The translations under genes and the position numbers were made by a program. The notes under the pieces were generated by a model, which had not been told where the DNA came from, did not search any database, and was given only the letters and a program-made list of their open reading frames with translations. DNA of 32,000 bases from Candidatus Methylopumilus planktonicus. GTDB taxonomy: Bacteria; Pseudomonadota; Gammaproteobacteria; Burkholderiales; Methylophilaceae. The stretch is from positions 421,446 to 453,445 of the forward strand of contig NZ_CP040984.1 of the NCBI RefSeq assembly GCF_006364715.1. The letters are read 5' to 3'. How positions within the stretch are numbered: the stretch's first letter is position 1; each line of letters begins with the position of its first letter. Positions 5,241-25,534 of this stretch are shown piece by piece.

Positions 5241-6245
5241 TTAAAAATTAACCCAGGCTTTTGTTTTAATGGAGGCTTGAATTGCTTCTAATGTTTTTGT
5301 ATTCCAAAGCGCATCAACTAGAGAAAGTTTGGGCGCAGTGTTATTAATGATGCATTGATTAAAATGATCTATTTCAAGTGTAAAGTGATTAGCTTTTTCA
5401 ATACGCTCATTCTTTGAGCCATCTGCATCTGTTGTCATGGTTAATTGTGCCTCATCATTTTCATGTTGCCATACGGTATGACACATCAACTTCCCTTTAG
5501 ACCCAAAGACTTCAAATTGAGAGCGTCTCACACATTCAAAGCTAATATCAAATTGCGCACGTCGATTCAGACCAAAATCAATCATGCCCGAAGTAGTTAA
5601 ATCTGCCCCATGATCGTTAAGATGGCTTGTTGCAACAACTGATAAGGGGTTCTGATCAAAGCATTGTCGAATCGTATGAATAGCATAGGGTCCAATGTCC
5701 CAGAGAGCGCCACCACCATTTTCAATTGATCGATCGATACGATAAAAACGTGCAGGCTGGATTGGAAAAGAAAACATTGAATGCACATACTGAACATCAC
5801 CTAACAATCCTGAACTAATGATTTCTTTTATACGATCAAACTGTGGATGAAAGACATACATAAAACCTTCCATCACTTTGACATGATTTTTATCAGCCGC
5901 CTCCTGAATTAATTCAACTTCTTTTGAATGAAGCGTGATCGGCTTTTCTATGAGCACATGTTTTTTTTTATTGATTGCTTTAAGAGCGGGCTCAGTATGC
6001 TCTTCGTTCGAAAGTGGGATATAAATAGCGTCTATATCAGGATGATTAATTACTTCATCTAATGAATTGAAGGTTTGAACTTTGCCTACAAGTGCGGGCT
6101 GGTATTTTTCCAAGCATTCTGCTGCTGCATTCTGCCTCCTACTTCCAATAGCAACGAGCTCACCAAAAGGACTATTAGCAATAGCTGGAAGAAGGCGTTC
6201 ATTGACTCGCGCAGCTCCTAGAATGCCCCAACGCACTTTTTTCAT
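5241..6245 (-). CDS. Gfo/Idh/MocA family oxidoreductase
   Basis: 334 aa. The N-terminal Rossmann motif is VRWGILGAARVNERLLPAI, with EKP in LIEKPITL typical of the family. Confidence 0.88.
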   Translation of the reverse strand: MKKVRWGILGAARVNERLLPAIANSPFGELVAIGSRRQNAAAECLEKYQPALVGKVQTFNSLDEVINHPDIDAIYIPLSNEEHTEPALKAINKKKHVLIEKPITLHSKEVELIQEAADKNHVKVMEGFMYVFHPQFDRIKEIISSGLLGDVQYVHSMFSFPIQPARFYRIDRSIENGGGALWDIGPYAIHTIRQCFDQNPLSVVATSHLNDHGADLTTSGMIDFGLNRRAQFDISFECVRRSQFEVFGSKGKLMCHTVWQHENDEAQLTMTTDADGSKNERIEKANHFTLEIDHFNQCIINNTAPKLSLVDALWNTKTLEAIQASIKTKAWVNF

Positions 6246-7127: not shown

Positions 7128-7203
7128 TGGTGGGGGATGCGAGGGTCGAACTCGCGACAAACGGATTAAGAGTCCGCTGCTCTACCAGCTGAGCTAATCC
7201 CCC
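7128..7203 (-). tRNA. tRNA-Lys (anticodon CUU), the only intact copy
   Basis: The reverse complement reads GGGGGATTAGCTCAGCTGGTAGAGCAGCGGACTCTTAATCCGTTTGTCGCGAGTTCGACCCTCGCATCCCCCACCA. It forms a 76-nt cloverleaf with anticodon loop CT-CTT-AA and an encoded CCA. Confidence 0.93.
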
Positions 7204-7290
7204 AGAAAAGAACATTTTACAGTATTTGTGGGGGTTGTAGAGGGGGTAGGATTGGGGATTTTGTTGGGGCTGGAATAGGGGTGTGTTAGG
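7166..7290 (-). repeat. repeat unit copy 1: tRNA-Lys positions 1-38 plus about 87 nt of G-rich (plus strand) leader
   Basis: Matches 8525-8650, 9298-9370 and 15515-15640 in direct orientation. All copies keep CAGAAA..ATTTTACAGTA next to the tRNA 5' end (TAAAAT on the tRNA strand, a likely -10). Confidence 0.85.
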
Positions 7291-7303
7291 AAATCACCAA
7301 TAG

Positions 7304-7409: not shown

Positions 7410-7676
7410 ATGGATAATTTTGAATATAACTTTGAGCTATTAAAAGCTACACGCTTAAGTAAAAAAATCTCAGCGCAAAGTATGGCTGCTGATTTATGTT
7501 TGGCTGAACGTCAAATCATTTCTATCGAAGAAAATAGCGTTCAATATTTTCCTTCTAAATCTCTTAAATACACCAGCTTAAAAAAATACATAGCAGCACT
7601 TGGTTTAAAAAATGAGGATGTCATCTTCAATTTTAATGAAGTTGACCCCACCCCAAGTTTGTTAAAGAAGCCATAG
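7410..7676 (+). CDS. RodZ-N-terminal-like (HTH_25-type) DNA-binding protein, paralog 1
   Basis: 88 aa with the pattern LLK.TR..K.IS....A..L.L...QI..IEEN....FP......LKKYIAALGL. It is paralogous to 17498..17764 and 20450..20836. Confidence 0.7.
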   Translation: MDNFEYNFELLKATRLSKKISAQSMAADLCLAERQIISIEENSVQYFPSKSLKYTSLKKYIAALGLKNEDVIFNFNEVDPTPSLLKKP

Positions 7677-7679
7677 AGT

Positions 7680-8069
7680 ATGCGAGCATTTGGTAATCTA
7701 TTCATTATTTTAAGTATTTTCACCTCAATACTCTTTGGACTTGAGTATTTTTCTGAAGCTACAATTGTGTTCTTAGCAGTTCTTCTGTATCTCACAGGGC
7801 ATTATGTGAGGCATAATTTTACCTATCGCAATTTTAAGATAAGCAGGCGATCAAAACCTTTTTTTGAATCAATATTAAAAAATACAATACAAGCCATTGC
7901 CTATGTAACTATCTTCATTTTTGTAGGCTACATACTCCTAAAAATCTCAAAAACTGATTTTTATCTAAATAATCTCCAAAGTTTGATGCAAAGCTCTATT
8001 GATGTAATCAATGAAATAATCAGATTTTGGATTAACTTACCTAGTCAATTAATGAAGTATGGACAATAA
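7680..8069 (+). CDS. membrane protein (variable middle gene of cassette 1)
   Basis: 129 aa with three hydrophobic helices. It starts 3 nt after the previous stop and overlaps the next gene by 11 nt. Confidence 0.55.
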   Translation: MRAFGNLFIILSIFTSILFGLEYFSEATIVFLAVLLYLTGHYVRHNFTYRNFKISRRSKPFFESILKNTIQAIAYVTIFIFVGYILLKISKTDFYLNNLQSLMQSSIDVINEIIRFWINLPSQLMKYGQ

Positions 8070-8388
8070 GCATCCTTTATTGACGAGTGCTTGTGAATAT
8101 ATAGAAATAAATCTTCATCTTAAGATTTCGATGTTAGATCTCAAGCGCCATACCAATTATTCCGAACGATCTTTACAGTTAATATTTAAAAAATACTTAA
8201 ATAAAAGTCCATTTGAATATATTGAAGAGCAAAGATTGTTAAAGGCTCACGAATTGATTAAGCAGCATAAACAATCAAAGAAAACTACTCACATTGCTAC
8301 AGAAGTAGGATTTAGACATTTAGGAAGATTCTCTGTGAACTTCAAAAAAAGGTTTGGCATTCATCCTTCAGTTTTAGCTCGATCTTAA
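8059..8388 (+). CDS. stand-alone AraC/XylS-type HTH regulator (SoxS/MarA-sized), paralog 1
   Basis: 109 aa containing only the AraC double-HTH region (LQLIFKKYLNKSPFEYIEEQRLLKAHELI...GFRHLGRFSVNFKKRFGIHPS). Confidence 0.8.
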   Translation: MDNKHPLLTSACEYIEINLHLKISMLDLKRHTNYSERSLQLIFKKYLNKSPFEYIEEQRLLKAHELIKQHKQSKKTTHIATEVGFRHLGRFSVNFKKRFGIHPSVLARS

Positions 8389-8400
8389 CTTAGAGATCAC

Positions 8401-8417
8401 CGTCAAAAATTTTGACG
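8401..8417. repeat. perfect palindrome CGTCAAAA-A-TTTTGACG at the cassette 3' boundary
   Basis: 8-bp arms. Related copies occur at 18528-18544 (degenerate) and 22705-22719, each just after a stop codon. Confidence 0.6.
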
Positions 8418-8420
8418 TTC

Positions 8421-8440
8421 GGTGTGCTTAGGTGTGCTTG
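8421..8440. repeat. tandem GGTGTGCTT x2, candidate arm-type integrase binding sites
   Basis: GGTGTGCTTAGGTGTGCTTG lies about 40-55 nt from tRNA-like relic copy 2. The same GTGYGC motif recurs next to copy 4 and the integrase at 15413-15453. Confidence 0.4.
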
Positions 8441-8477
8441 CTGATTTCAATCGAGAAAAAACTTCTATCTCTGCCAC

Positions 8478-8650
8478 TGCCTGGGTCTACTAGGGTGAGA
8501 TCTCAGAAAATTTAACTGATCTGCGAGTCCGCTGCTTGACCAGCTGAGCTAATCCCCCAGAAAAGAACATTTTACAGTATTTGTCTGGGTTGCAGAGGGG
8601 GTAGGTCGGGGGATTTTGGTAGTGGTGGAATAGGGGTGTGCTACGAAATG
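8478..8650 (-). pseudogene. tRNA-Lys relic copy 2 with a decayed 3' half, plus a leader copy
   Basis: 8525-8558 matches tRNA positions 1-34 with 2 mismatches. On the tRNA strand, 8478-8504 reads GAGATCTCACCCTAGTAGACCCAGGCA against the tRNA's GAGTTCGACCCTCGCATCCCCCACCA (about 17/27 with one gap). 8559-8650 is a copy of the G-rich leader. Confidence 0.6.
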
Positions 8651-8665: not shown

Positions 8666-9271
8666 TCAAATTTCTCTAATAGCCGTGCTAATGACTTTAT
8701 AGGATGAGCGTAGCAAAAAGATTGATAGTGCTAATCCCACCACGATATCTGCCCAACCACTCTGTGTAAACCACACAATAAGTGATGCAATGATGACAGC
8801 AATATTATTTGCAATATCATTTCTTGAACATTCCCAAACAGATGACATATTAATATCTTGATCTTTGTGTTTTGTAAGCAAATACAAACAAGTTAAGTTT
8901 CCTAATAATGCTATAACACCTACAACACTCATGATTTCAAATACAGGAATCGTGTGATTGATAATATGTTGGATGACTTGAAATAAAACAAATAATGCAC
9001 CGACTAATATTAATAGTCCTTTAAATAAAGCCACTTTAGCTTTAGCTTGATTGCTCTTATAGATGACAAATAAACTTAAAGCATAAGTAATCGCATCACC
9101 TAAATCATCTAAGCTTTCTGACATCAAGCCTGTTGAATGTGACATCCAACCAGAACTAAAAACAATTAAGAACAAGAACACGTTAATCGCTAAAACGATT
9201 TTTAATGTTTTTGATTGATTTACTTTTAAGGCATCAACAGCACAGCTTTTATTTTCGCAGCAATCTGACAT
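8666..9271 (-). CDS. cation diffusion facilitator-like transporter (membrane domain only)
   Basis: 201 aa with a Cys-rich N-terminus (MSDCCENKSC), a TM2-type acidic motif SESLDDLGDA, and six hydrophobic segments. Confidence 0.6.
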   Translation of the reverse strand: MSDCCENKSCAVDALKVNQSKTLKIVLAINVFLFLIVFSSGWMSHSTGLMSESLDDLGDAITYALSLFVIYKSNQAKAKVALFKGLLILVGALFVLFQVIQHIINHTIPVFEIMSVVGVIALLGNLTCLYLLTKHKDQDINMSSVWECSRNDIANNIAVIIASLIVWFTQSGWADIVVGLALSIFLLRSSYKVISTAIREI

Positions 9272-9297
9272 TTCTTATCTTATTAAGTTGAGTTTTA

Positions 9298-9370
9298 GCT
9301 GCTCTACCAACTGAGCTAATCCCCCAGAAAAGAACATTTTACAGTAATTGTCTGGGTTGTAGGGGGTTTC
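9298..9370 (-). repeat. tRNA-Lys relic copy 3: positions 1-28 plus a truncated leader
   Basis: GCTGCTCTACCAACTGAGCTAATCCCCC has 1 mismatch to the tRNA. It is followed by AGAAAAGAACATTTTACAGTAATTGTCTGGGTTGTAGGGGG, and homology then stops. Confidence 0.75.
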
Positions 9371-9484
9371 TAATGGTGTAAATCGTATTCTAAGTTTTGT
9401 TGTGCGCAAGTGAAAGTTCAAAAACCATACACAGCGTATGGAAAAAAGTATTAGAATGATTTTAATAATTTAGAAAATACTTAA

Positions 9485-10012
9485 ATGTTTAATTGGACAA
9501 AAAACTTTTACAAAAAAGATTATTCAATACCTTTAACAATGGTTTTAGTTTTTGTTGTTTATTGGTTTGTCAAGACTGCAGTTAAGCATTCAGCCGCAAC
9601 TCCTTTCGTTTGGAGCAAAGGAATTTATGACGAAATATTTTCCATAGCGTTTGTTTTTATTTTTTTTAGAGTCGTTTTCTTAAAGACAAAATCAATACAA
9701 AAATTTATCTTCTATCAACATAGTTTTTTATGGCTTCTTACTAAAATTATTTGGTTTGTAAGTATAGTGTGGCTTTGGATTTTTCTTAGTTTTGAAATTC
9801 CAAAAATTACAACCAATATAATTTACAAAGCTACAGATTTACCTGTATATGTTATTGATCCCTGTAGTTATTGGACAGAAGAGTTGGATAGATATGCAAG
9901 TTGGACAAAGGAAGAGGAAAGTGAAGCCTTAAAATTTTGGAAAATTGATGATGTTTGGGGTTTTGATTCAAAATGCGCACCACGAGAATTTGAACGAGAT
10001 GAGCAATACTAA
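9485..10012 (+). CDS. hypothetical membrane protein
   Basis: 175 aa with three or four hydrophobic helices and an acidic C-terminal tail. No family recognised. Confidence 0.45.
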   Translation: MFNWTKNFYKKDYSIPLTMVLVFVVYWFVKTAVKHSAATPFVWSKGIYDEIFSIAFVFIFFRVVFLKTKSIQKFIFYQHSFLWLLTKIIWFVSIVWLWIFLSFEIPKITTNIIYKATDLPVYVIDPCSYWTEELDRYASWTKEEESEALKFWKIDDVWGFDSKCAPREFERDEQY

Positions 10013-10027
10013 CAAATAAAAGAATCT

Positions 10028-10426
10028 ATGTTTAATTGGCTTAAAAAAATTAGATCAAGAAAGTTGATTAAATTAGTAGTTTTAAATAATTCAGTTTTAG
10101 AAATAATAATGGATATGCAAAAAATTGGATTTGAGCAAAATTTAAAGCCTATACACGGCAATGATTTTAAAGATAGTGATGAATTTATTAAATGGTTAAA
10201 AAATCGATTTGTAATCAATCACGCTATTCTTTTAAAGTTTAAAAGAGATGGAGACATTAAAGACAAAAGCTCTGTTGATTTTATTTTAAAGTTAGATAAA
10301 GAGTTAAGGAATTGGTATCGAAAATCTTCAATTAGTATATTTCAATCATATGATGATCGATACAATAAGCCTCTAAGAGGTTGGGATGATATTTGCGAGA
10401 ATTTTTTTGATGAATTACCAAATTAA
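10028..10426 (+). CDS. hypothetical protein
   Basis: 132 aa and hydrophilic. It shares only the MFNW start with the preceding gene. No family recognised. Confidence 0.45.
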   Translation: MFNWLKKIRSRKLIKLVVLNNSVLEIIMDMQKIGFEQNLKPIHGNDFKDSDEFIKWLKNRFVINHAILLKFKRDGDIKDKSSVDFILKLDKELRNWYRKSSISIFQSYDDRYNKPLRGWDDICENFFDELPN

Positions 10427-10574
10427 ATATAGTAATTTTTCTTCACATCACATAACCAATCAAACAAATTCGTAATACCACTTTTTCAATATAAAAACCT
10501 AACGATTTTGAATCAAACAACATAATTAACAGTGTGGTCAAAAATCAAGTGCGGTTGGGAAAAAGTAGTTAGCA

Positions 10575-10754
10575 CTAAAAATTATTTGCACTTAACTTTT
10601 GTAATTGTTGCTGTATTTTTTGTTGCTTTTGTTTTTTTCTTTCAGCTTTAAGTAAATTTTGTGCATTCTTAACTTGTTTTTGCAGTGAATCAATCCGAGC
10701 CTGACTTGGAGTAAGAGGTTTTTGTGGTTTGATATTAAATTCATAAAAGCGCAT
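10575..10754 (-). CDS. hypothetical 59-aa Lys/Gln-rich protein
   Basis: Not in the ORF track. The product is MRFYEFNIKPQKPLTPSQARIDSLQKQVKNAQNLLKAERKKQKQQKIQQQLQKLSANNF. It starts 9 nt downstream of the stop of 10763..11206 on the same strand. Confidence 0.4.
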   Translation of the reverse strand: MRFYEFNIKPQKPLTPSQARIDSLQKQVKNAQNLLKAERKKQKQQKIQQQLQKLSANNF

Positions 10755-10762
10755 AACATTAT

Positions 10763-11206
10763 TTACTTTTTAAATGTGTTGCGTGTTTTTTCACTAACAC
10801 TTTCAATTGCGCTATCTAATTCACCATTAAGTACAGCATCTTTTAGTGCAATAAGCGTATCGATTAGCTCTTTTTTATCTTTAACCTCAATCGCATTGCT
10901 ACCATCCTTGTTTAGGAGGAGTGTCTTTGCCCCATACTTAATTTGTAAATTTAATTTACCGCTATCATTTACCCAATACCATTTGCGTAAACGTTTGTTA
11001 ACTTCTTTTGTATAACTTTGACCGTTTTCTTTGTTAGTATATTTTTTTTCTTTGCGCACACTATAATTACTACCATTTAATTCAGCTTTAGCTATTTCTA
11101 ATTGTTCGAATAGCTTTGTACACAACTTATTACGTTTTTGTTGTATAGGATTAATGTGTAACTGTTTTGTTGCTGTAATTAGATTTAATTTTGTAATTAA
11201 ATTCAT
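10763..11206 (-). CDS. hypothetical protein (island cargo)
   Basis: 147 aa. No catalytic motif recognised. It is divergent from 11340..11648. Confidence 0.5.
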   Translation of the reverse strand: MNLITKLNLITATKQLHINPIQQKRNKLCTKLFEQLEIAKAELNGSNYSVRKEKKYTNKENGQSYTKEVNKRLRKWYWVNDSGKLNLQIKYGAKTLLLNKDGSNAIEVKDKKELIDTLIALKDAVLNGELDSAIESVSEKTRNTFKK

Positions 11207-11339
11207 TTCATACTCCTAATGTTGTTATGTTTAGTACACATTAGTTTCTGATTTGTTAATAAAGCAAGTATTTGCCCAATCTTACCAAATAATTAGTCAC
11301 ATTTAGCCATCAATTATTATCAGTGTGCTAAATAAACAT

Positions 11340-11648
11340 ATGAATTACTACAAAGCAGACATAAAAACTAATGATTGGCTTAAATCGAATGGTATAAGTG
11401 TTAAACACTTTGCTAAAACTGATAGCCAATTACTTAAGGCTCAAAAGATAGCATTCAATTTATTAAAACATCATTTAAATTTACTAAGCACACCACAAAT
11501 TAAAACATTACGAGTGTATTGCGCACAAATGGCAAGTGATAAAAAACGAAATAAGATTACAGATAACTTTGTCTACAAAGTTCTAAATATAGGCACAAAA
11601 ATAAATCGACAACTATTTAAGGCAAATAAAGAGATAAACAACTCTTAA
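11340..11648 (+). CDS. hypothetical protein (island cargo)
   Basis: The track gives a GTG start at 11325, but the ATG at 11340 (MNYYKADIK...) is more conventional. The stop lies 2 nt before the 20-bp palindrome. Confidence 0.45.
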   Translation: MNYYKADIKTNDWLKSNGISVKHFAKTDSQLLKAQKIAFNLLKHHLNLLSTPQIKTLRVYCAQMASDKKRNKITDNFVYKVLNIGTKINRQLFKANKEINNS

Positions 11649-11650
11649 CA

Positions 11651-11670
11651 AGTATTACTTAAGTAATACT
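11651..11670. repeat. perfect 20-bp palindrome AGTATTACTTAAGTAATACT, candidate recombinase site A
   Basis: Exact inverted 10-mers. The same sequence recurs at 12873-12892 in 19/20 positions. Confidence 0.75.
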
Positions 11671-12268
11671 TTAACAAAGTGTAAAAACCCAATTTGTAAT
11701 ATGACGGCTAATGAGATTGGACTTGTATACAGTTGCTGAAAAAGCTGTATATGAATAAGGTGACCGCAGATTTGACTATGGTATGAGTAGTTTGGAAGTT
11801 TTAACACATCCGTCTTCCGTAAAATCATTTTTCAGTCGTGTACTTGCTAAACAAATACACATAACGATAGCTATGTTGCTTTTTTAAACAAAGCACATAG
11901 CCGTCGTATACCTCAAAACAAATCAAAAAAAACTAAAAAAAAATTGTGCTGAGCGATAAGCGATAGCACAAGCGAACTTTAGTTCGCTATTAATGTGTAT
12001 CTGTAATTCATATTAAGGTGCTTTAAACACATAATTTGAATTTAACTGTAAGTGCGCCCCAAATTATTCAATTAAGCGTTGTAGGGCTATGTAATTGTTG
12101 TATAAAAGCCACATAAATATAAAAAGACTAAAGATTATTGTGAAATTCTTTAGTCTTTAATGTAAGTCTTTGATTTTTGGCATATCACCCCAAACATTTC
12201 AGTCGATAGGAAAATTTTTGTAAAGAATACAAACTTATACACATATTTTATTATGTGAGGAGTTAAAA

Positions 12269-12835
12269 ATGGCACAAGCAAAATCGTTAACGCAATATGA
12301 AATCGATCAAGTACTTCGTTATGTATCAACTACACGTTATCACAAACGCAATCGTGCAATTGTGCTTACAAGTTTTTGGAGTGGTATGAGGGTGGGTGAA
12401 ATTGCTAATCTAAAAATAAGTGATATACGAAACGAAGATGGAAGTGTTAAAAGTGAAATAAGATTAACTTCAGCCCAAACAAAAGGAAAGTTTGGGCGTA
12501 CGGTGTATGTAAATGAGAAATTGCGCAGTGAATTAACTAATTATTTGGTTGGTTACAAACTGATTGAACCAAGTGCACCATTATTTAAAACAGAAAAAAA
12601 CAAAGCGTTCAGCCCAAACACTTTAACGCAATGGTTTTTTTGGATGTATAAAAAAGCTGCGGTGAGTGGGGCAAGTAGTCATAGTGGACGCCGTACTTTT
12701 ATTACTACATTGGCTCAGAAGGGGGTAGGGGTGCGGGTTTTAGCCAAGCTAGCTGGGCACCGCTCTATATCCATTACACAGGTCTATATTGATGTAAACG
12801 CTGATATGATGCGTAAAGCAGCGGAGCTCATATAA
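12269..12835 (+). CDS. small catalytic-domain-only tyrosine recombinase (FimB/FimE-sized)
   Basis: 188 aa. Arg-I context is GMRVGEIANLKISDI, H-x-x-R is in HSGRRTF, and H...Y is in GHRSISITQVY. An SD (GAGGAG) lies 7 nt upstream. Confidence 0.85.
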   Translation: MAQAKSLTQYEIDQVLRYVSTTRYHKRNRAIVLTSFWSGMRVGEIANLKISDIRNEDGSVKSEIRLTSAQTKGKFGRTVYVNEKLRSELTNYLVGYKLIEPSAPLFKTEKNKAFSPNTLTQWFFWMYKKAAVSGASSHSGRRTFITTLAQKGVGVRVLAKLAGHRSISITQVYIDVNADMMRKAAELI

Positions 12836-12853
12836 AAAAGTCATACTTCTACA

Positions 12854-12936
12854 AGTATTACCTAAAAATATCAGTATTACTTAAGTAATACCTCTTTTAG
12901 TGATCTTAATAAGTAATACTTAATTTAGTATTACTT
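12854..12936. repeat. cluster of AGTATTACTT arms: half-site, 19/20 palindrome (site B), and a 10-6-10 inverted pair (site C)
   Basis: AGTATTACCT at 12854-12863; AGTATTACTTAAGTAATACC at 12873-12892; AAGTAATACT-TAATTT-AGTATTACTT at 12911-12936. Confidence 0.75.
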
Positions 12937-14100
12937 TTTACTTTTTGATTTCAACTTTTTTTTAGCCGCAGATCGCTCTCCTCTGCTGTTATATATGAAA
13001 TTTTGAAAATCTAACTCATCTTCAAATCTTGCCGCCTGTTGCTTGTCAGCCCTCAATTGGTGGGCTTTCAGAGCCTCTTCTTCCCCAGCCTCTTGTAGTC
13101 TATGTTGTAGCTCTTCGGCCCAAATTTTCTCTTCTTTTTCTCTGATTTCATTTTCGAAGTGATCAACTTTACTAACAATAAATTTGGCAAATCGGTTTAC
13201 TATCAACTCATCTAATTCAAGATTTGGGGGGAGAATTGCATTGATGTGTAAATCTGCGTAATCACTTTCTCTGTCAAATTTTCTTACTCCTGTCCCCAAC
13301 ATTACACACATTGAATTATTTTGACTGAGATAGTTTTGTAAATGACGTGCAAGCATTGTTGTAGTTGCAAATGGTTTAACTTCTCGTATTTCTAAATATT
13401 TCATAATTACAATACGAGCCCGAGCCAATCTTTCCTTATATGTTTCAGCTTGCTGTAATTCAAGTTGGCTGAGTTGCACTGCTCCAGTAATTGTTATCTC
13501 ACTAATCCATTTAGTAAAATCCTCAATTTTAATATCAGAATGTTTTGCAACTTGTAATACAGAGCCGTATTTAAAAATTTGAGCTGTACCTATATCACCA
13601 AATATAAATCTAATAATTAGTGATGCGTCAGGTGTATTAGATTGTACTTTGACGTTATGTTCTTTAAACAGCTCTCTTATTTTTGCGTATAAAAAATCAC
13701 CATTCTCAGCATTTTCTGCTTCAATAAAAATTGAATAAGCTTCACTAATAGCTTGATATCTTTGTTTTCTAAATGCTTCTTTAGCAATATTGTATTTTTT
13801 TCGAACAGCAATGATTCTTTTTAACCAATCATTTACTTGCTGTTCTTGTAGCTTCATTTTATTTTCCCACTCCGCTAATCTTTGTTTTGATGTGTCATTA
13901 AGAATAATCGGATTTGCTTCACGCTCTTTGCGCATCTGTTCTGATGCTTTACGAATTGTTTCAAAACGTTCTAATATGTCTGGGGGGAGCGTTGATTTTA
14001 ATTTTGCTAAATTAGATTTAGCATTAGCTGTTCGTGTTTGTTTTTTTTGTGGGAGTTTAGATTTATTATTTGCTTTCTTTATCGCCATAATGTAGTCCAT
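12931..14100 (-). CDS. hypothetical coiled-coil protein adjacent to the integrase
   Basis: 389 aa with Lys/Glu-rich predicted coiled-coil N- and C-terminal regions around a central globular part. No motif recognised. Its stop codon lies inside recombinase site C. Confidence 0.55.
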   Translation of the reverse strand: MDYIMAIKKANNKSKLPQKKQTRTANAKSNLAKLKSTLPPDILERFETIRKASEQMRKEREANPIILNDTSKQRLAEWENKMKLQEQQVNDWLKRIIAVRKKYNIAKEAFRKQRYQAISEAYSIFIEAENAENGDFLYAKIRELFKEHNVKVQSNTPDASLIIRFIFGDIGTAQIFKYGSVLQVAKHSDIKIEDFTKWISEITITGAVQLSQLELQQAETYKERLARARIVIMKYLEIREVKPFATTTMLARHLQNYLSQNNSMCVMLGTGVRKFDRESDYADLHINAILPPNLELDELIVNRFAKFIVSKVDHFENEIREKEEKIWAEELQHRLQEAGEEEALKAHQLRADKQQAARFEDELDFQNFIYNSRGERSAAKKKLKSKSKK

Positions 14101-14134: not shown

Positions 14135-15373
14135 TTAACTTTCAATTAGTTTTCGAGTTGCTAATCCACTTAATTGTTCAATTGCTTTTACAGCATCTAA
14201 GTGACTGTAATGTTTTTCAATCATTACAACTGATGTTCCCATTTGTTTTGCTAACGTGTGTATGTTTACGTTGTCATACGTCAATGCAAACGTAGCATAA
14301 GTGTGTCGTATGCTGTAAAACGAACGTGGTTTAAGTGTAATAGGGCAAATAAGCAACTTCATTTCTTTTAAATAACCAATAAACATTCTAAAAAAACTAC
14401 TTGGCTTAACCATTTTAGGTATTTGATTTAATTTTCCATTACGTTTACTGCAAAATTCTATATATCGAAAGATGTAATCTTGTTTATTTGCATTTAGTAT
14501 ATCTTCTAACGACATATTAAAATTACGTTCTGCAATTCTACGCAGAGCTTGTATTGTTGGCTCACGAGCGATTGCACGACGTTCGCCTGTTTTACTTTTC
14601 TGTATGTTAAAAATTAAATTGTGTTCGTTAGCAAATTTAATATTGCTCCATTTCAATTCAAACAACTCACGTCCAGGACGTGCACCTGTGTCTAATAAAA
14701 TAATCACATAGTCTTTTAATAGATAACGTAGTTGCATACTGTGTGTTTTTGCTTTTTGTATCCAACTATCAAATCCACTCATCATCTTTTTAATTTCTTC
14801 TAAACTAAACTCGACACGACGTTCACACTTTGCACCTTTTGCAACTAACACAGGACGCTGTGCTTCAGTCATATAGCCGTGCAATACAGCTTCATCAAAT
14901 ACACGTTTAAGCGCAGCATTGTGATTTAGTATAGTGCTCCGTTTAGGAACTTTACCCATTTTTTTAATACGAAACTTTTCTAACAACTCTAATTCTTTTA
15001 ATTTAATTTGTTCGACTGACAAGTTGCCAAGCACGGGAGTTAGATAACTTCTAATTATCATTGAGTAATCTTTGTAAATTGCTTTACCTTCATTCTGTGC
15101 AATTTCATTTTCAATTCTTTGCATTGCTAATTTTGCAACATCCTTAAATTTTTTTGACACAGGAGCGATGTTTAATTTATCTCGCACGTGTGCTTCAATT
15201 AAAATCATATTCGCACTTTGTATTGCACTTTCTAATGTGTATTCATTTGTCGAGCAACGTATCCACTCATCTTTAATTTTGTATCGACATTGCCACTTGT
15301 CACTGTTCGCTCGCTTAAACACAATTAGTTTGCGTTTAATTACTTCGTGTGTAGTTTCTATACGCTCTCTCAT
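14135..15373 (-). CDS. tyrosine-type site-specific integrase
   Basis: 412 aa. The Arg-I context is TGARPGRELFELKWSNI, with IRHTYATFAL and a C-terminal IEKHYSHL (catalytic Tyr). It lies next to a tRNA-like relic. Confidence 0.88.
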   Translation of the reverse strand: MRERIETTHEVIKRKLIVFKRANSDKWQCRYKIKDEWIRCSTNEYTLESAIQSANMILIEAHVRDKLNIAPVSKKFKDVAKLAMQRIENEIAQNEGKAIYKDYSMIIRSYLTPVLGNLSVEQIKLKELELLEKFRIKKMGKVPKRSTILNHNAALKRVFDEAVLHGYMTEAQRPVLVAKGAKCERRVEFSLEEIKKMMSGFDSWIQKAKTHSMQLRYLLKDYVIILLDTGARPGRELFELKWSNIKFANEHNLIFNIQKSKTGERRAIAREPTIQALRRIAERNFNMSLEDILNANKQDYIFRYIEFCSKRNGKLNQIPKMVKPSSFFRMFIGYLKEMKLLICPITLKPRSFYSIRHTYATFALTYDNVNIHTLAKQMGTSVVMIEKHYSHLDAVKAIEQLSGLATRKLIES

Positions 15374-15412
15374 TGCAAAAGCGTAATTTCATAACACACA
15401 AAGAGCAATCAA

Positions 15413-15453
15413 AAGTGCGCATAAGGTGTGCAAGTTAAAAAAGTGTGCGATTG
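15413..15453. repeat. three direct GTGYGC(R)A repeats between int and relic copy 4, candidate arm-type sites
   Basis: AAGTGCGCA, AGGTGTGCA and AAGTGTGCGA fall within 41 nt. The motif is shared with 8421-8440. Confidence 0.45.
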
Positions 15454-15480
15454 AAAAGTAGTGATGCCATAGAAACAGCG

Positions 15481-15640
15481 TGGCTGTAGGATGGGGTGAC
15501 TCTGAACAACGTTTTTAAGAGTCCGCTGCTCTACCAGCTGAGCTAATCCCCCAGAAAGTGATATTTTACAGTAATTGTGGGCGTTGTAGAGGGGGTAGGT
15601 GGGGGGATTTTGGCAGGGGTGGAATGGGGGTGTGTTGAAA
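15481..15640 (-). pseudogene. tRNA-Lys relic copy 4 (perfect 5' 38 nt, decayed 3' half) plus a leader copy
   Basis: 15515-15552 is identical to tRNA positions 1-38. On the tRNA strand the continuation is AAACGTTGTTCAGAGTCACCCCATCCTACAGCCA against the tRNA's TCCGTTTGTCGCGAGTTCGACCCTCGCATCCCCCACCA, with ordered blocks CGTT, GAGT, ACCC, CATCC and CCA. 15553-15640 is the G-rich leader. Confidence 0.65.
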
Positions 15641-15643
15641 AGC

Positions 15644-16393
15644 TCAATTACACTTCCAAATTGTAAATTCACTTTCTGGGCTATTTGGGGTAATTAAAAC
15701 TGTAAATCGATTTGAAGTGGCTCGAGTTACTAAAATGCCATAATCAATCAAAGAGTTTTTTGCTGCTAATTTTTCGGCAGTTTCCCAAACATGGTCCAAA
15801 TTTTTTACGTATGTAAAAATATATGCATTAAATTTATTTTTTACTTTTGGATCAATTCGAACCAAATGAACATGCAGCTGATTTTGACTGCGATGAGTTT
15901 TTGGATTTACTGCTAAAGCTATTAAATTTGGCTCAATAATTTTTTTAGAGGTTTCCCACGCAAATTGCCAGATTTCTTCTTGACGCCTTATATCTTCAAT
16001 CCCTGTCACCTCTGATCTAGGCATTGTTAAACCATGAATAAAGTCTTTAGAACAACCACACATTTTAATGTCTCGAATAGAAACAAATTGTTCATTTTCA
16101 GACCAAATTTCAGTAGTATTTTTGCAGTCTTGAGGATTTCCACAACTACTATCAATTCTAGGAGATACACATTGATTGCAATAATTTTGAGTTTTTGGAT
16201 TTATGCATTGCGTGGCAATATTTAATAGGATATCGCTTCTAGAAATTTCTAGCGCAAAACTTGGATAAATTGATCCAAGTAAAAGAATAACAAGAATAGA
16301 GCGTTGTATTTTTTTTACTATTTCGAGATAACTAATTATTTGTTTTTTTAAAAAAAATAAATGATAAAAAGAGGCTGAAATTTTTTTATACAT
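15644..16393 (-). CDS. cdh: CDP-diacylglycerol pyrophosphatase family protein
   Basis: 249 aa. AVNPKTHRSQNQLHVHLVRIDPKV matches the Cdh HIT-like motif (INS..GRTQNHFHIHISCIRPDV in E. coli Cdh). It has an N-terminal hydrophobic anchor or signal. Confidence 0.75.
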   Translation of the reverse strand: MYKKISASFYHLFFLKKQIISYLEIVKKIQRSILVILLLGSIYPSFALEISRSDILLNIATQCINPKTQNYCNQCVSPRIDSSCGNPQDCKNTTEIWSENEQFVSIRDIKMCGCSKDFIHGLTMPRSEVTGIEDIRRQEEIWQFAWETSKKIIEPNLIALAVNPKTHRSQNQLHVHLVRIDPKVKNKFNAYIFTYVKNLDHVWETAEKLAAKNSLIDYGILVTRATSNRFTVLITPNSPESEFTIWKCN

Positions 16394-24253: not shown

Positions 24254-25534
24254 TCAGTTGAGCCACATTTTTTTATAGGTATTATTAGGGTCGTATTCAA
24301 GGTTCTGTTTTTTTGTGTTAAATTTTCTTCCTCCTCTTGGATCTGTTCCAAGCCCAGCAATATATAGCCAATTTCCTTGATTACTATATACGTCATAATC
24401 AATTAATTGAGACTCAAACCATAAGGCGCCTTTTCTCCAGTCACAACTAAGATCGTAAATTAAATAACTTGCTACGATTTGCCTCATTCTATTGGAAAGA
24501 TAACCAGTAAATCTTAATTCTTTCATGCCAGCATCTATTAAATCATTTCCTGTTTCACCCTGAATCCACTTATTAAAATTTTCATCATTATGGTTTATCA
24601 AATTATTATTATTACTCAGGCCATTTTTAGAGTAGAGCTTTTTTCCAAATTTAAAATGAATAAATCTAAAATAATCACGCCATAAGAGCTCAAACCATAT
24701 CCAATATGAGCTTTCGTTTGCACCATGCTGATCTTCAAATTCTTTTATTCTGAATGCAATATATCTTGCTGAAATCGAGCCTAAAGATAACCAGGGTGAA
24801 AATTTTGTTGAGAAATTTACTCCAAATAGTTGATTGCGTGTTTCCTTATATGTGTGTGGCAGTTTTTGTAGTAAATAATTTTCAAGATGAGCTAATGCAT
24901 TTTTTTCCCCACCATGGAATTGATTCTCGAGGTAAGGAAAAGAAGCATGTTTATATTTGAGACTTGTAGGAAAATTAGTATTTGAACTAAACTCAATATT
25001 TTTATCCGGTAAAGGTGGAAGCTTTTCTGGAAGTGGTGTTGGTGCTTTAACTATAATTTTTTTCGATTCAATTAATTTTCTGAATTCTGTAAAAATATCT
25101 GGCATATTTTTTAAATCAAATGGAAGTTCATTTACTTCTATCATTGAAGACTGCCAAAACGTTTCAACAGGAATACCTAGGCTTCTAATTGATATTTCTT
25201 CATCTTGCTCTTCCGGACTGATAATTTTCTCGAAGATGATTTTAGTTGCACCAATTACCTCTGATATTTTCTTAATTTGTTCACAAATATTGCCATGCAC
25301 TTCAAGAAGATCTGAATTATGAGACTTAAGATTTTCTTTTAATTGATTTAATGCTTGCCGTAAAAAAGTTTGCCTATGAATACCAACTCTTTGGATATTC
25401 TTATAAATTGACTGATTATCTGGATGACAGAACAATGGTAGTAAAACATCACTTTCAAGAGAGGCTTTTAGAAAGGCTGTGTTATCGAATAAGCGTAAGT
25501 CATTCCTAAAACAGTAAATAGTAATATTTTTCAC
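24254..25534 (-). CDS. cryptochrome/photolyase family protein (Cry-DASH-like)
   Basis: 426 aa. The N-terminus FRNDLRLFDNTAF is photolyase-like. The FAD-domain motifs are TGYLSNRMRQIVASYL and NWLYIAGLGTDPRGGR. Confidence 0.85.
   Translation of the reverse strand: MKNITIYCFRNDLRLFDNTAFLKASLESDVLLPLFCHPDNQSIYKNIQRVGIHRQTFLRQALNQLKENLKSHNSDLLEVHGNICEQIKKISEVIGATKIIFEKIISPEEQDEEISIRSLGIPVETFWQSSMIEVNELPFDLKNMPDIFTEFRKLIESKKIIVKAPTPLPEKLPPLPDKNIEFSSNTNFPTSLKYKHASFPYLENQFHGGEKNALAHLENYLLQKLPHTYKETRNQLFGVNFSTKFSPWLSLGSISARYIAFRIKEFEDQHGANESSYWIWFELLWRDYFRFIHFKFGKKLYSKNGLSNNNNLINHNDENFNKWIQGETGNDLIDAGMKELRFTGYLSNRMRQIVASYLIYDLSCDWRKGALWFESQLIDYDVYSNQGNWLYIAGLGTDPRGGRKFNTKKQNLEYDPNNTYKKMWLN

Follow-up and report, generated by a model that had tools for sequence, protein, structure and literature searches.

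A 32,000-nt stretch of the genome of Candidatus Methylopumilus planktonicus (NZ_CP040984.1, positions 421,446 to 453,445; hereafter the window) very probably holds an array of three integrative units at the sole tRNA-Lys(CTT) gene, built by a lineage of lambda-type integrases that acts with reversed polarity at or near the anticodon loop. The islands of this locus appear to supply a new promoter and the front half of the tRNA, which almost all such elements do not. The tRNA-Lys(CTT) gene is single in the genome according to ARAGORN, and the window contains four copies of a leader joined to the 5′ half, the fragments upstream of the gene covering tRNA positions 1-28, 1-34 or 1-38; a search for 3′ tRNA fragments found none. 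The features, numbered from the first letter of the window, are as follows.

7128-7203, minus strand: live tRNA-Lys(CTT) gene (ARAGORN; Rfam tRNA model, 70.1 bits).
7166-7294, minus strand: copy 1, the putative P′ arm of the proximal unit, with tRNA positions 1-38 and a C-rich leader.
7241-7214, minus strand: promoter-like TCTACA-16-TAAAAT of copy 1, from sequence.
7281-7286, minus strand: ACACAC site of copy 1, at -83.
7410-8388, plus strand: genes carried by the proximal unit, which has no integrase (HTH_25, an AraC-type HTH and a small membrane-like protein; Pfam).
8421-8440, minus strand: two candidate arm-type sites in tandem on the P arm of copy-2 type, AAGCACACC-T-AAGCACACC, with 10-nt spacing, conserved in 12 copy-2-type modules.
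8441-8524, minus strand: copy-2 relic, a putative degenerate tRNA-Lys 3′ half (from position 35) with GGCAGTGGCAG, a T-run and AAATCAGC.
8525-8649, minus strand: copy 2, leader and tRNA positions 1-34 with two D-arm mismatches; putative P′ arm of the cation-efflux unit.
8636-8641: GCACAC site of copy 2.
8666-9271, minus strand: cation-diffusion-facilitator (CDF) gene, 201 aa (Pfam/NCBIfam).
9298-9462, minus strand: copy 3, putative P′ arm of the integrase element, with hairpin and T-run, promoter and tRNA positions 1-28.
9402-9407: GCGCAC site of copy 3.
9463-14100, no strand assigned: cargo of the integrase element, unknown ORFs, 95% collinear with loci L147 and L148 down to 10490.
12269-12835: small tyrosine recombinase, 188 aa, within that cargo.
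12931-14100: unknown ORF, 389 aa, within that cargo.
14135-15373, minus strand: tyrosine integrase, 412 aa (PF00589, 4.7e-9; phrog_1).
15415-15450, minus strand: three candidate arm-type sites of the copy-4 P arm, from sequence.
15450-15443, minus strand: the first of these, TCGCACAC.
15433-15426 and 15422-15415, minus strand: their tandem pair, TTGCACAC and ATGCGCAC, with 11-nt spacing.
15451-15514, minus strand: copy-4 relic, 34 nt of putative degenerate 3′ half, then 30 nt containing a weak hairpin and the remains of a T-run.
15515-15643, minus strand: copy 4, the displaced older leader with tRNA positions 1-38; left junction of the integrase element.
15590-15563: promoter-like site of copy 4.
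15630-15635: ACACAC of copy 4.

The 3′ half of the live gene (about 7128-7165) is chromosomal, whereas the unit added last contributed its promoter and 5′ half. Tested against the tRNA gene, copy 4 is identical at 38/38 positions (15552-15515), and it is this copy that the integrase gene adjoins, as originally noted; the coordinates and sequences first reported for copies 2 and 4 also proved correct. The array has the layout sought by Islander, with an intact tDNA at 7128-7203, fragments at 8525, 9298 and 15515, and the integrase gene (14135-15373) between them, and it is of the 5′-replacing kind, since what has been displaced is a 5′ fragment, found upstream of the intact tRNA gene. An empty-type site (genome G022) contains a single copy whose leader is alike for only 41 nt, the leader of copy 1 beyond -41 being missing there. 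Copy 3 lacks positions 29-38, including the crossover region, and is homologous to the P′ arm whose neighbour is the live tRNA in metagenome contig L150 and a copy-2-type relic in L146. We considered whether copy 3 might itself end in a relic and rejected this, because its continuation is the start region of the cation-efflux gene, which is fused 21 nt past tRNA position 28, and the same junction is duplicated at 646 kb. As the integrase element has lost its own P′ core (copy 3 ends at position 28) and the loop of copy 2 is changed, the element is probably immobile in this genome except as a composite between copies 4 and 1.

The PF00589 match of the integrase spans residues 193-393 (E=4.7e-9), its phrog_1 match reaches 1.3e-29, and R232, K261, R356-H357 and H388-Y389 are invariant in 27 relatives; judged by sequence, it possesses the tyrosine recombinase catalytic domain of a lambda-type (heterobivalent) integrase. 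An AF2 model (pLDDT 87) places strands at residues 8-12, 16-20, 27-33 and 36-41 and a helix at 47-66 with pLDDT of about 85-92, and thus predicts an extra N-terminal, lambda-Int-like domain of arm-binding type over residues 8-66. The Foldseek matches of this model to Tn1549 Int, lambda Int, XerH and Cre all had a probability of 1.00, and Foldseek aligned it to full-length lambda Int (1z1g) over 393-397 columns. None of the Pfam arm-domain models matched the integrase, NCBIfam had no model for it, and a profile search of PDB sequences returned no match. The possibility that the locus is an integron was set aside: the 412-aa integrase had no NCBIfam integron match, the 188-aa recombinase scored 39 bits against the integrase_gron model (cutoff 265 bits), and the repeats derive from a tRNA. 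Layoun et al. (PMC10872708) likewise report no bona fide integrons.

Related loci give the ends of the element. L150 and L145 are single-element cases of the Islander layout, each with one element of about 5.2 kb directly at the live tRNA and core flank. At one end of the 5.25-kb element of L150 stand an old leader and 5′ half followed by relic, repeats and integrase; at the other, a copy-3-type leader and 5′ half continue into the native 3′ half and core flank. In this contig the element's copy-3-type P′ leader, with TAAAAT, stands directly before the full tRNA, which suggests that the element supplies the promoter-like leader of the rebuilt gene. The same layout recurs in L027, L087, L107 and L145, bearing out the earlier proposal that the elements carry a leader and 5′ half that end up in the live gene. 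In L027 the repeat is 112 nt long (74 nt of leader and 38 nt of tRNA), 100% identical, and the live tRNA lies 7.5 kb past the integrase; in L107, at a tRNA-Phe gene, the repeat is 101 nt. Loci L037 and L052 were taken to hold an intron-split tRNA, a guess we dropped when no Rfam family reached its gathering score.

Eight metagenome contigs, L150 and L145 among them, were found by an exact 24-nt pattern and carry the copy-4 P arm in differing left and right contexts; 5/8 encode an intact integrase of 412-413 aa. Their identity to the window is about 50% far upstream, 75-81% in the leader, 97-100% in the 5′ half and 94-96% in the P arm, where the search pattern by itself forces identity over the first 17 nt of the relic. 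Read at the level of sequence, these loci and contigs show how the junctions are built and where the element ends, and they document insertions that arose independently in natural populations as well as the conservation of motif and spacing; the exact crossover position and the current activity of the element are what we infer.

The original prediction held that the sequences following the 5′-half copies are decayed tRNA 3′ halves, and this part is upheld only in some of the alignments. Local alignment of the relics to the 3′ half was not significant against dinucleotide shuffles (p=0.10 for copy 4, p=0.13 for copy 2), whereas alignments anchored at the breakpoint beat the shuffles, weakly for each copy (p=0.03 and p=0.012; p=0.008 for copy 2 when downstream sequence was included). 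A Fisher combination over six relics gave p=0.008. The consensus of 12 distinct copy-2-type relics of the genus reached z=4.8 against the 3′ half plus 30 nt downstream (0/3000 shuffles) and z=3.2 against the 3′ half alone. The covariance model suggested for this comparison did not discriminate: the Rfam tRNA model gave 13.5 bits for copy 4 and 12.6 bits for a control made of a natural 5′ half with a non-similar tail (genome 645 kb), with 17.5 bits at a further junction and no match for copy 2. In the 34-nt part of the copy-4 relic (AAACG...GCCA, 15514-15481) 6/7 acceptor-stem pairs are possible, and copy 2 continues past position 34 as GAGATCTC...GGCA (8504-8478). Taken alone, the resemblance of the copy-4 relic to the tRNA must be called marginal. 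The relics are not functional tRNA genes, as ARAGORN finds the live gene alone and the 13.5 bits of copy 4 fall below the 29-bit cutoff.

One may postulate that the sequence past the breakpoint was never a tRNA 3′ half and is an unrelated spacer, its tRNA-like blocks owing to chance or to the needs of the integrase core site. The non-significant local alignments and the near-equal score of the control junction fit this view, as do the relics of L027, L028 and the 645-kb copy, none significantly similar to the tRNA 3′ half, and that of a Phe-type element compared with its own tRNA (p=0.26). Nevertheless, we consider it improbable, given that the copy-2-type consensus is collinear with the 3′ half and the T-run downstream, and that anchored p values of 0.012-0.03 recur in three lineages. 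Comparative evidence also stands against it. In standard relatives, which have a 45-57-nt repeat of the 3′ part, the integrase is preceded by a 3′ half, a terminator and tandem repeats. Among the tRNA-Lys integrases of the sister clade, the homologous position is filled by the sequence from the anticodon loop to the 3′ end, a terminator, tandem repeats and the integrase gene, so that a true 3′ half and terminator lie in the corresponding place and equally far from the repeats. The 3′ half, terminator and AAAATCnGC of the standard relatives are matched collinearly by the copy-2 relic, this last motif standing ahead of the tandem pair in copy-2-type modules and standard relatives alike, and homology also links the P arms of copy 4 and L087 (p=0.0015). 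By these comparisons, the relic sits where the real 3′ half sits in sister elements, consistent with the complete tRNA-like attP proposed at the outset.

The further proposal, that this 3′ half is never used and decays, needs correcting. Among elements the copy-4 relic is identical at 116-119/124 positions (93-96%), compared with 86-88% DNA identity of the integrase genes, and its length fixes the distance between loop and tandem pair at 83 nt. Because it is more conserved than the integrase gene and the core-to-arm spacing of the family (83 nt) is kept, the relic appears, on sequence grounds, not to decay freely and to be retained as a length-constrained part of attP.

The repeats read as GTGYGC on the forward strand are real and their arrangement is clearly more than chance. 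The hexamer itself is common in the window (14 on the plus and 8 on the minus strand), with occurrences at 15415-15420, 15426-15431 and 15443-15448 beside copy 4 and at 8422-8427 and 8432-8437 beside copy 2. Tandem [ACG]CRCAC pairs spaced 10-11 nt, searched on both strands, occur only twice in the window, each after a tRNA 5′-half copy. That of copy 4 ends 41 nt before the integrase ATG. Comparison of related elements, as had been proposed, recovered the tandem motif upstream of the integrase under a strict pattern in 21/86 relative loci, against 0/56 and 3/73 control stretches, and never on the opposite strand in relatives. Across the family, RCRCAC repeats lie 38-189 nt upstream of the integrase in a single orientation; pairs occur also on the P′ arm of standard relatives. 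Every leader copy in the window bears a single RCRCAC site at -83, a site that is on the element side only in L027 and L107 and is also found on the element side in L150. Loop and pair are 83 nt apart in both window copies, while relatives have 81, 91-93 or 102-105 nt, and the copy-4 P-arm sites show RCRCAC-preserving changes in 6 metagenome contigs. Since arm-type sites are recognised by their presence on both arms, these patterns support the earlier suggestion that the repeats behave as such sites. They occur on both arms of attP, distinct from the core, and the integrase may bind them through its predicted N-terminal domain.

The same repeats might instead serve an excisionase or some regulator as operators, or belong to the promoter of the integrase gene. 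Their constant position 38-189 nt upstream of the integrase in one orientation would suit that role, and in lambda-type systems directionality factors and integrase promoters do lie in the P arm. We regard it as quite unlikely, however: the motif is paired on the other arm, 5-10 kb from the integrase and adjoining the core, and present at -83 of each leader, the integrase has a matching extra N-terminal domain in prediction, and no excisionase-like gene was recognised in the window by Pfam or phrog.

The segment 7204-8524 was originally thought to be the remnant of a related element that had lost its integrase. It does carry a P arm and no integrase; by sequence, it belongs to a widespread type of unit and is not a one-off remnant. 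Copy-2-type modules occur in 9/18 other genomes of the genus, in several copies and with varied cargo, and no integrase of the family stood beside them at the ten genus loci checked. In every copy the tRNA identity ends at position 34, which agrees poorly with an overlap of 7 nt that coincides with the anticodon loop. In viral contigs a copy-2-type 26-mer had no match, and an 18-mer had three matches, all unrelated.

Such units could have spread mainly by homologous recombination or gene conversion, after DNA uptake, between the conserved modules of leader, 5′ half and relic (about 250 nt), in which case the conserved relic would be a homogenised repeat and not a functional site. The multicopy occurrence of the modules with different cargo, the ten loci without integrase, the constant end at position 34 and the intact integrase in only 1/19 genus genomes all agree with this account of the array, chiefly of its copy-2-type units, as does the duplicate of the [leader, CDF gene, leader] unit at genome 645.2-646.1 kb (87.6% identity), a locus that is not tRNA-Lys. 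Yet copy-2-type units keep the tandem pair, spacing and AAAATCnGC of the family, which would be unexpected for a mere homology arm; in L146 and L148 a copy-2-type relic meets the 5′ half of the integrase element itself, always at one position, which is what accretion would lead one to expect; and integrase fragments remain in the arrays of G126 and G135. We therefore judge homologous recombination as the main route to be rather unlikely, and observe that it and site-specific integration are not mutually exclusive.

Under site-specific integration, the P′ arm of the free attP would consist of a hairpin, one RCGCAC site, the tRNA promoter and tRNA-Lys positions 1-38, the crossover coming next; its P arm would hold, in order, a degenerate 3′ half of about 34 nt, a degenerate terminator of about 30 nt and three RCRCAC sites, including the 11-nt-spaced tandem pair, before the integrase gene. 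On integration, the promoter and 5′ half of the element would be linked with the 3′ half in the chromosome, making the live gene; the promoter and 5′ half that served there before would be cut off beside the relic and integrase, as copy 4. Repeated insertions would displace older units outward, where they could later lose integrase or core sequences, as in copies 2 and 3. The original attP-type reading holds, with two corrections, because the repeats, the sister 3′ halves and the element ends agree.

In the integrase tree, the 5′-type Lys clade (100/99) is sister to the standard tRNA-Lys clade (100/99), within standard tRNA-Met/Lys integrases, and the Phe 5′-type lineage is separately sister to the standard Met clade. 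The relic probably descends from the functional 3′ half and terminator still present in sister elements, no longer making tRNA and retained as a length-constrained part of attP; an ancestral intermediate with a whole tRNA gene would have preceded it, and no example with two intact tRNA copies was found. Our broader interpretation is offered tentatively, as possible rather than probable: one integrase family would have switched at least twice (in tRNA-Lys and tRNA-Phe lineages of Methylophilaceae) from replacing the 3′ half to replacing promoter and 5′ half, via a whole-tRNA-gene attP, and selection would now maintain the fossil 3′ half and terminator as a spacer that holds core and arm sites in helical phase.

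Arm-type sites on both the P and P′ arms, bound by the N-terminal domain, are known from the attP of lambda Int and mycobacteriophage L5 Int. The window family likewise has short direct repeats on both arms, helically phased from the core, and the predicted three-domain window integrase aligns with lambda Int over its full length; however, sequence identity to lambda Int is only about 18%, and the RCRCAC motif and layout are specific to the window integrase family. A 2002 paper by Zhao and Williams (J Bacteriol 184:859) is reportedly about integrative elements whose recombination target is the 5′ part of a tRNA gene. Among such 5′-part elements we know of no described case with a 3′-half fossil, two independent switches in one integrase family, or integrase-less arrays. 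Archaeal cases of recombination with the 5′ part are listed in PMC6563490, and the reversed target orientation is common to those elements and ours. Tandem arrays at one tDNA, an integrase beside attP, anticodon-loop crossover and a tRNA-identical segment that restores the gene are shared with the anticodon-loop tRNA integrases (Williams 2002, Nucleic Acids Res 30:866; Islander, PMC4383910), and close relatives of the window integrase insert in this way at tRNA-Lys, -Met, -Phe and -Leu. Here, in contrast, the restoring segment is promoter plus 5′ half, the displaced piece is a 5′ fragment with about 90 nt of leader, and the 3′-half place in attP is taken by a non-functional relic.

Streptococcal ICESt1/3 and their CIMEs provide a precedent for accretion and for the persistence of integrase-less, cis-mobilisable units flanked by att sites. 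In tycheposon islands (Hackl et al., bioRxiv 2020.12.28.424599), insertion likewise occurs beside a tRNA and older units are pushed outward with partial tRNAs between them; the window repeat differs from both in being a 5′ half with promoter. In actinobacteriophages with tRNA-dependent lysogeny (Guerrero-Bustamante and Hatfull 2024, PMC10865867), the integrase-side junction also lacks a functional tRNA and the element compensates, there with about 10 bp in common with attB and a separate complete tRNA gene, whereas in the window it is at the other junction that the gene is restored, by the promoter and 5′ half of the element.

The locus and the phenomenon have been published before. The array is the fGI-2 of Layoun et al. 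(2024, PMC10872708), an additive flexible genomic island of Ca. Methylopumilus planktonicus and universalis that varies in size and cargo and was recognised via recurring ACCAGCTGAGCTAATCCCCC repeats of tRNA-Lys(ctt). That 20-mer is the reverse complement of tRNA positions 1-20, and is called the 'last 20 bp' there; the passages of that paper on tRNA, integrase and additive islands name no integrase or att architecture, and no leader or promoter transfer, relic or arm repeats.

Our analysis offers a mechanism for fGI-2, which ranks among the three main flexible islands in this abundant methylotroph of fresh waters and was previously recognised by a 20-bp repeat only. It also provides a rare natural series for a change in attachment-site polarity, as standard, reversed and decayed forms occur within one integrase family. 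For annotators, arrays of promoter-bearing 5′ tRNA fragments are att scars and not pseudogene families, and the compact integrase with its attP and attB could be tried as an integration tool in streamlined freshwater bacteria. An essential host tRNA can come to rely on an element-borne promoter: if our reading is true, the sole tRNA-Lys(CUU) gene of most Methylopumilus species would be transcribed from the promoter of a mobile element, displaced promoters may drive the integrase or cargo, such as the cation-efflux gene fused at tRNA position 28, and copy-2-type units would be an integron-like, trans-mobilised cassette platform in a streamlined genome.

The complete 1.30-Mb genome (37% G+C; window G000:C1:421446-453445, G000 being the genome of the window) has one tRNA-Lys(CTT) gene, the sole one that ARAGORN identified genome-wide, located on the minus strand of the window at 7128-7203. 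Its 5′ half, together with about 90 nt of leader, forms a direct repeat of 125 nt that occurs four times in the window, and the integrase gene that had been noted as coming next after the outermost copy is indeed found there:

7170-7294: copy 1, belonging to the live tRNA gene
8525-8649: copy 2, 89% identity
9292-9416: copy 3, similarity limited to tRNA positions 1-28 and about 41 nt of leader
15519-15643: copy 4, 85% identity
14135-15373, minus strand: tyrosine integrase of 412 aa, its start 41 nt past the last GTGYGC repeat behind copy 4

On the tRNA strand, the last position identical to the live gene is 38 in copy 4 (ending CTCTTAA), 34 in copy 2 and 28 in copy 3. Between copies 4 and 3, the integrase gene is accompanied by ORFs without assigned function and by a gene for a small recombinase of 188 aa. 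Downstream of copy 2 there follow, in order, a degenerate sequence resembling a tRNA 3′ half (the relic, 8504-8478; that of copy 4 spans 15514-15481), a tandem repeat pair, a palindrome and an HTH/AraC cassette. The palindrome, GTCAAAA(G/T)TTTTGAC (window 8399-8417; loci L133, L134, L136 and L141), follows copy-2-type pairs in many genomes and is also present at the end of AraC-type cassettes. No terminator-like sites were predicted in 15350-15700. All sequences quoted in the original prediction were found at their coordinates.

We searched metagenome contigs for the copy-4 junction using an exact 24-nt pattern and recovered eight contigs, five of which encode an intact integrase of 412-413 aa that is 88-98.5% identical to that of the window. 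Far upstream of the breakpoint these contigs are about 50% identical to the window, as unrelated sequences would be; identity then steps to 75-81% for the leader and 97-100% for the 5′ half, and is 94-96% across the P arm (the relic and repeats on the integrase side of attP). Contigs L150 and L145 each have one 5.2-kb element immediately at the live tRNA-Lys gene and its conserved flank, and in L150 the far end of the element is a copy-3-type leader homologous to window 9298-9462; this far end is found next to a copy-2-type relic in contigs L146 and L148, indicating that a later unit was added. One element type is thus present in at least five left and at least three right contexts, with the break at the same nucleotide throughout. 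At the level of sequence, these contigs show independent insertions of the copy-4-type element.

The identification of the relics as tRNA 3′ halves was borne out in part. Local alignment to the tRNA 3′ half did not separate them from dinucleotide shuffles (p = 0.10 for copy 4 and 0.13 for copy 2), and the same procedure found no similarity for the continuation of copy 3. Alignment anchored at the breakpoint, which is what a true relic requires, was more favorable (p = 0.03 for copy 4 and 0.012 for copy 2), and inclusion of downstream sequence brought copy 2 to p = 0.008 because GTTTTTTCTCG is also found behind the real tRNA gene. The Rfam tRNA model does not discriminate relics: copy 4 scored 13.5 bits, with 6 of 7 acceptor pairs possible, but a natural control (a copy at 645 kb whose tail has no similarity) scored 12.6 bits and copy 2 had no match; the junction of L027, a related element, scored 17.5 bits, and that of another, L087, had no match. 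Comparison of P arms shows that elements of standard polarity, which replace the tRNA 3′ part, are collinear with copies 2 and 4 in the order loop, 3′ half or relic, hairpin region, T-run, AAAATCnGC and repeat pair. Copy-2-type P arms are present in 9 of the 18 other genus genomes, often in multiple copies, at 73-91% identity, and the consensus of 12 distinct copies matches the live 3′ half extended by 30 nt of downstream sequence with z = 4.8 (0 of 3000 shuffles) and the 3′ half alone with z = 3.2. L087, with an integrase of 55% identity, has a P arm homologous to that of copy 4 (p = 0.0015); the degenerate state was therefore inherited with the element lineage and not formed in place. The proposal that an unused 3′ half decays is corrected by the metagenome contigs: past the searched pattern, 116-119 of 124 P-arm positions match, including in contigs whose integrase gene has 86-88% DNA identity, so that relic and repeats prove to be conserved rather than drifting.

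The window contains GTGYGC 14 times on its plus and 8 times on its minus strand, with clusters of three copies in 15415-15448 and two in 8422-8437. On the tRNA strand, the copy-4 repeats read TCGCACAC, then TTGCACAC-N3-ATGCGCAC, and the copy-2 repeats AAGCACACC-T-AAGCACACC; as predicted, they lie behind these two copies, and a scan of both strands of the window found two [ACG]CRCAC hexamers spaced 10-11 nt only there. The motif also recurs in homologous elements, with a strict tandem pair upstream of the integrase at 21 of 86 loci (compared with 0 of 56 and 3 of 73 control stretches, and none on the opposite strand) and one degenerate half of the pair at many further loci. On the far arm of standard relatives the motif is paired once more, with the displaced tRNA fragment following after 45-65 nt (e.g., GCT[ACACAC]CTTACT[ACACAC]C). 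Each leader copy in the window has one site at -83 (ACACAC, GCACAC, GCGCAC and ACACAC), which is confined to the element side in the single-element cases L027, L107 and L150. In relatives (L029-L100), the anticodon-loop end and the pair are 81, 91-93 or 102-105 nt apart, compared with 83 nt in both window copies; distance classes stepping by about one helical turn suggest a phased core-arm geometry across the integrase family. In the AlphaFold model of the integrase (pLDDT 87), residues 8-66 fold into four strands and a helix at the N terminus, preceding the core-binding and catalytic domains, and Foldseek aligned the model to Tn1549 Int, and to full-length lambda Int over 393-397 columns. The family-wide pair, far-arm pair, spacing and predicted N-terminal domain fit the earlier suggestion of arm-type sites, putatively those of a heterobivalent integrase. 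At three more distant loci (L082, L085 and L089; 38-40% identity), the region upstream of the integrase has a tRNA-Met 3′ half on the other strand and inverted repeats (AAGTGTGTAGGAAAGTGTGTAAG), a layout that puts the integrase on the other attP arm.

Searching genomes at the family level and scanning 185,579 species genomes yielded 93 loci with relatives of the integrase. Upstream of the integrase most have a complete tRNA (Lys-CTT, Lys-TTT, Met, Phe, Leu or Gln), and tandem arrays the tRNA 3′ part alone, from the anticodon loop on; in most relatives the tRNA is followed by a terminator hairpin, a tandem 8-mer pair such as CTTACACACCGCTTACACAC or CTACGCACACACTACGCAC, and the integrase gene. 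The direct repeat of standard relatives is a 45-57-nt tRNA 3′ part. The closest relatives, all Methylophilaceae, share the 5′-type layout of the window, in which the promoter and 5′ half are replaced. In L027 the repeat is 112 nt and 100% identical, comprising 74 nt of leader and positions 1-38 of tRNA-Lys(TTT), with the live tRNA 7.5 kb past the integrase; L087 has the same layout at tRNA-Lys(CTT), and L028 has the same integrase-proximal junction, although its far repeat and live tRNA were not found on a contig that stops short of the element's far end. L107, from a more distant Methylophilaceae lineage, has a 101-nt repeat (62 nt of leader plus 39 nt) at tRNA-Phe. In a maximum likelihood tree of 86 integrases, the three Lys 5′-type proteins form one clade (100/99) that is sister to a standard tRNA-Lys clade (100/99) and nested in standard Met/Lys groups, while the Phe 5′-type integrase is placed separately as sister to a standard tRNA-Met clade (100/99). 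The tree has a midpoint root only; with that caveat, reversed polarity would be derived and have arisen at least twice.

Other arrangements were also observed among these loci. About 100-380 nt upstream of the integrase, L037 and L052 have a D-arm of tRNA type that is separated by about 240 nt from a tRNA 3′ half; an intron-split tRNA was suspected, but none of the Rfam families scored at gathering level. L081 has a 159-nt unit in about five tandem repeats of 100% identity, about 180-1000 nt upstream of the integrase and just upstream of tRNA-Met. In the window genome, a second, distant tyrosine integrase (25% identity; genome 866519-867864 and 852170-852245) adjoins one of two tRNA-Arg(CCT) genes, probably as part of another tRNA island.

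The tRNA-Lys locus is present in all 19 genus genomes, most with several leader/5′-half copies. Genome G022 has a single copy whose leader resembles the others for 41 nt only (promoter-like TCTACA-16-TAAAAT) and a homologue of the window gene at 24270-25528 about 1 kb upstream of the locus; it approximates an unoccupied site. Among the 19 genomes an intact integrase of this family is found in the window genome only, with fragments in G126 and G135, and the copy-4-type P arm is absent from all 18 others. In G135 (L108, G135:C38, 1293-3400), two tRNA-Lys leader/5′-half copies come head-on after a tRNA-Phe 5′ half and a truncated Phe-type integrase, so that one species carries adjacent units from two different lineages of reversed polarity. 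G108 and G072 have the conserved flank followed by the tRNA 3′ part only, with the full tRNA 14-21 kb beyond; standard-polarity elements appear to use the tRNA-Lys gene as well.

Copy 3 is fused to cargo: a 201-aa cation-efflux gene (MSDCCENKSC...) has its ATG 21 nt downstream of the leader and tRNA positions 1-28 (window 9272-9325), and the identical junction recurs 215 kb away (genome 645978-646040; L026, about 5978-6040). This looks like a tRNA promoter captured by a cargo gene. The unit of leader, cation-efflux gene and leader is duplicated at 645.2-646.1 kb with 87.6% identity, near tRNA-Ser(TGA) and metal-related genes. Besides the cation-efflux duplicate, that locus (L026, genome 644.8-650 kb) has two tRNA-Lys leader/5′-half copies and encodes an HMA-domain protein as well as an AAA_25 protein; it lies next to tRNA-Ser(TGA), has no tRNA-Lys gene, and is either a secondary insertion or rearranged array units.

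From outside to inside, the window would consist of copy 4 as the old leader and 5′ half; the integrase element, from 15514 to about 9298, its own P′ core later deleted at position 28; the cation-efflux unit, down to 8525; a unit of the copy-2 type holding the AraC cassette (8524-7166), with a leader and 5′ half that would now drive the live tRNA gene; and, innermost, the chromosomal tRNA 3′ half. Sequence comparison demonstrates the anatomy, arm homology and conservation; we further infer that the integrase N-terminal domain would bind RCRCAC, that crossover falls within about tRNA positions 28-38, and that the elements originated via an attP holding a whole tRNA gene. Read-through from displaced promoters into the integrase may also occur. 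Copy-2-type junctions, where tRNA identity stops at position 34, are an awkward fit to a loop-sized overlap, and integrase-less units could have moved in trans or via homologous recombination.

This region is the additive island fGI-2 of Layoun et al. 2024 (PMC10872708), who identify it by its repeats of ACCAGCTGAGCTAATCCCCC (tRNA-Lys positions 1-20 in reverse complement); the passages retrieved from that paper name no integrase or att structure for it. Recombination with the 5′ part of tRNA genes is documented yet rare (archaeal cases are listed in PMC6563490), and Islander (PMC4383910) provides for 5′ fragments. Accretion beside tRNAs is as in the tycheposon model (Hackl et al., bioRxiv 2020.12.28.424599), and tRNA-dependent lysogeny (PMC10865867) is a different answer to a non-restoring junction than that of the window elements. 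New here are the attP anatomy underlying fGI-2, a derived and repeated polarity switch inside one integrase family, and a fossil 3′ half that is kept conserved.
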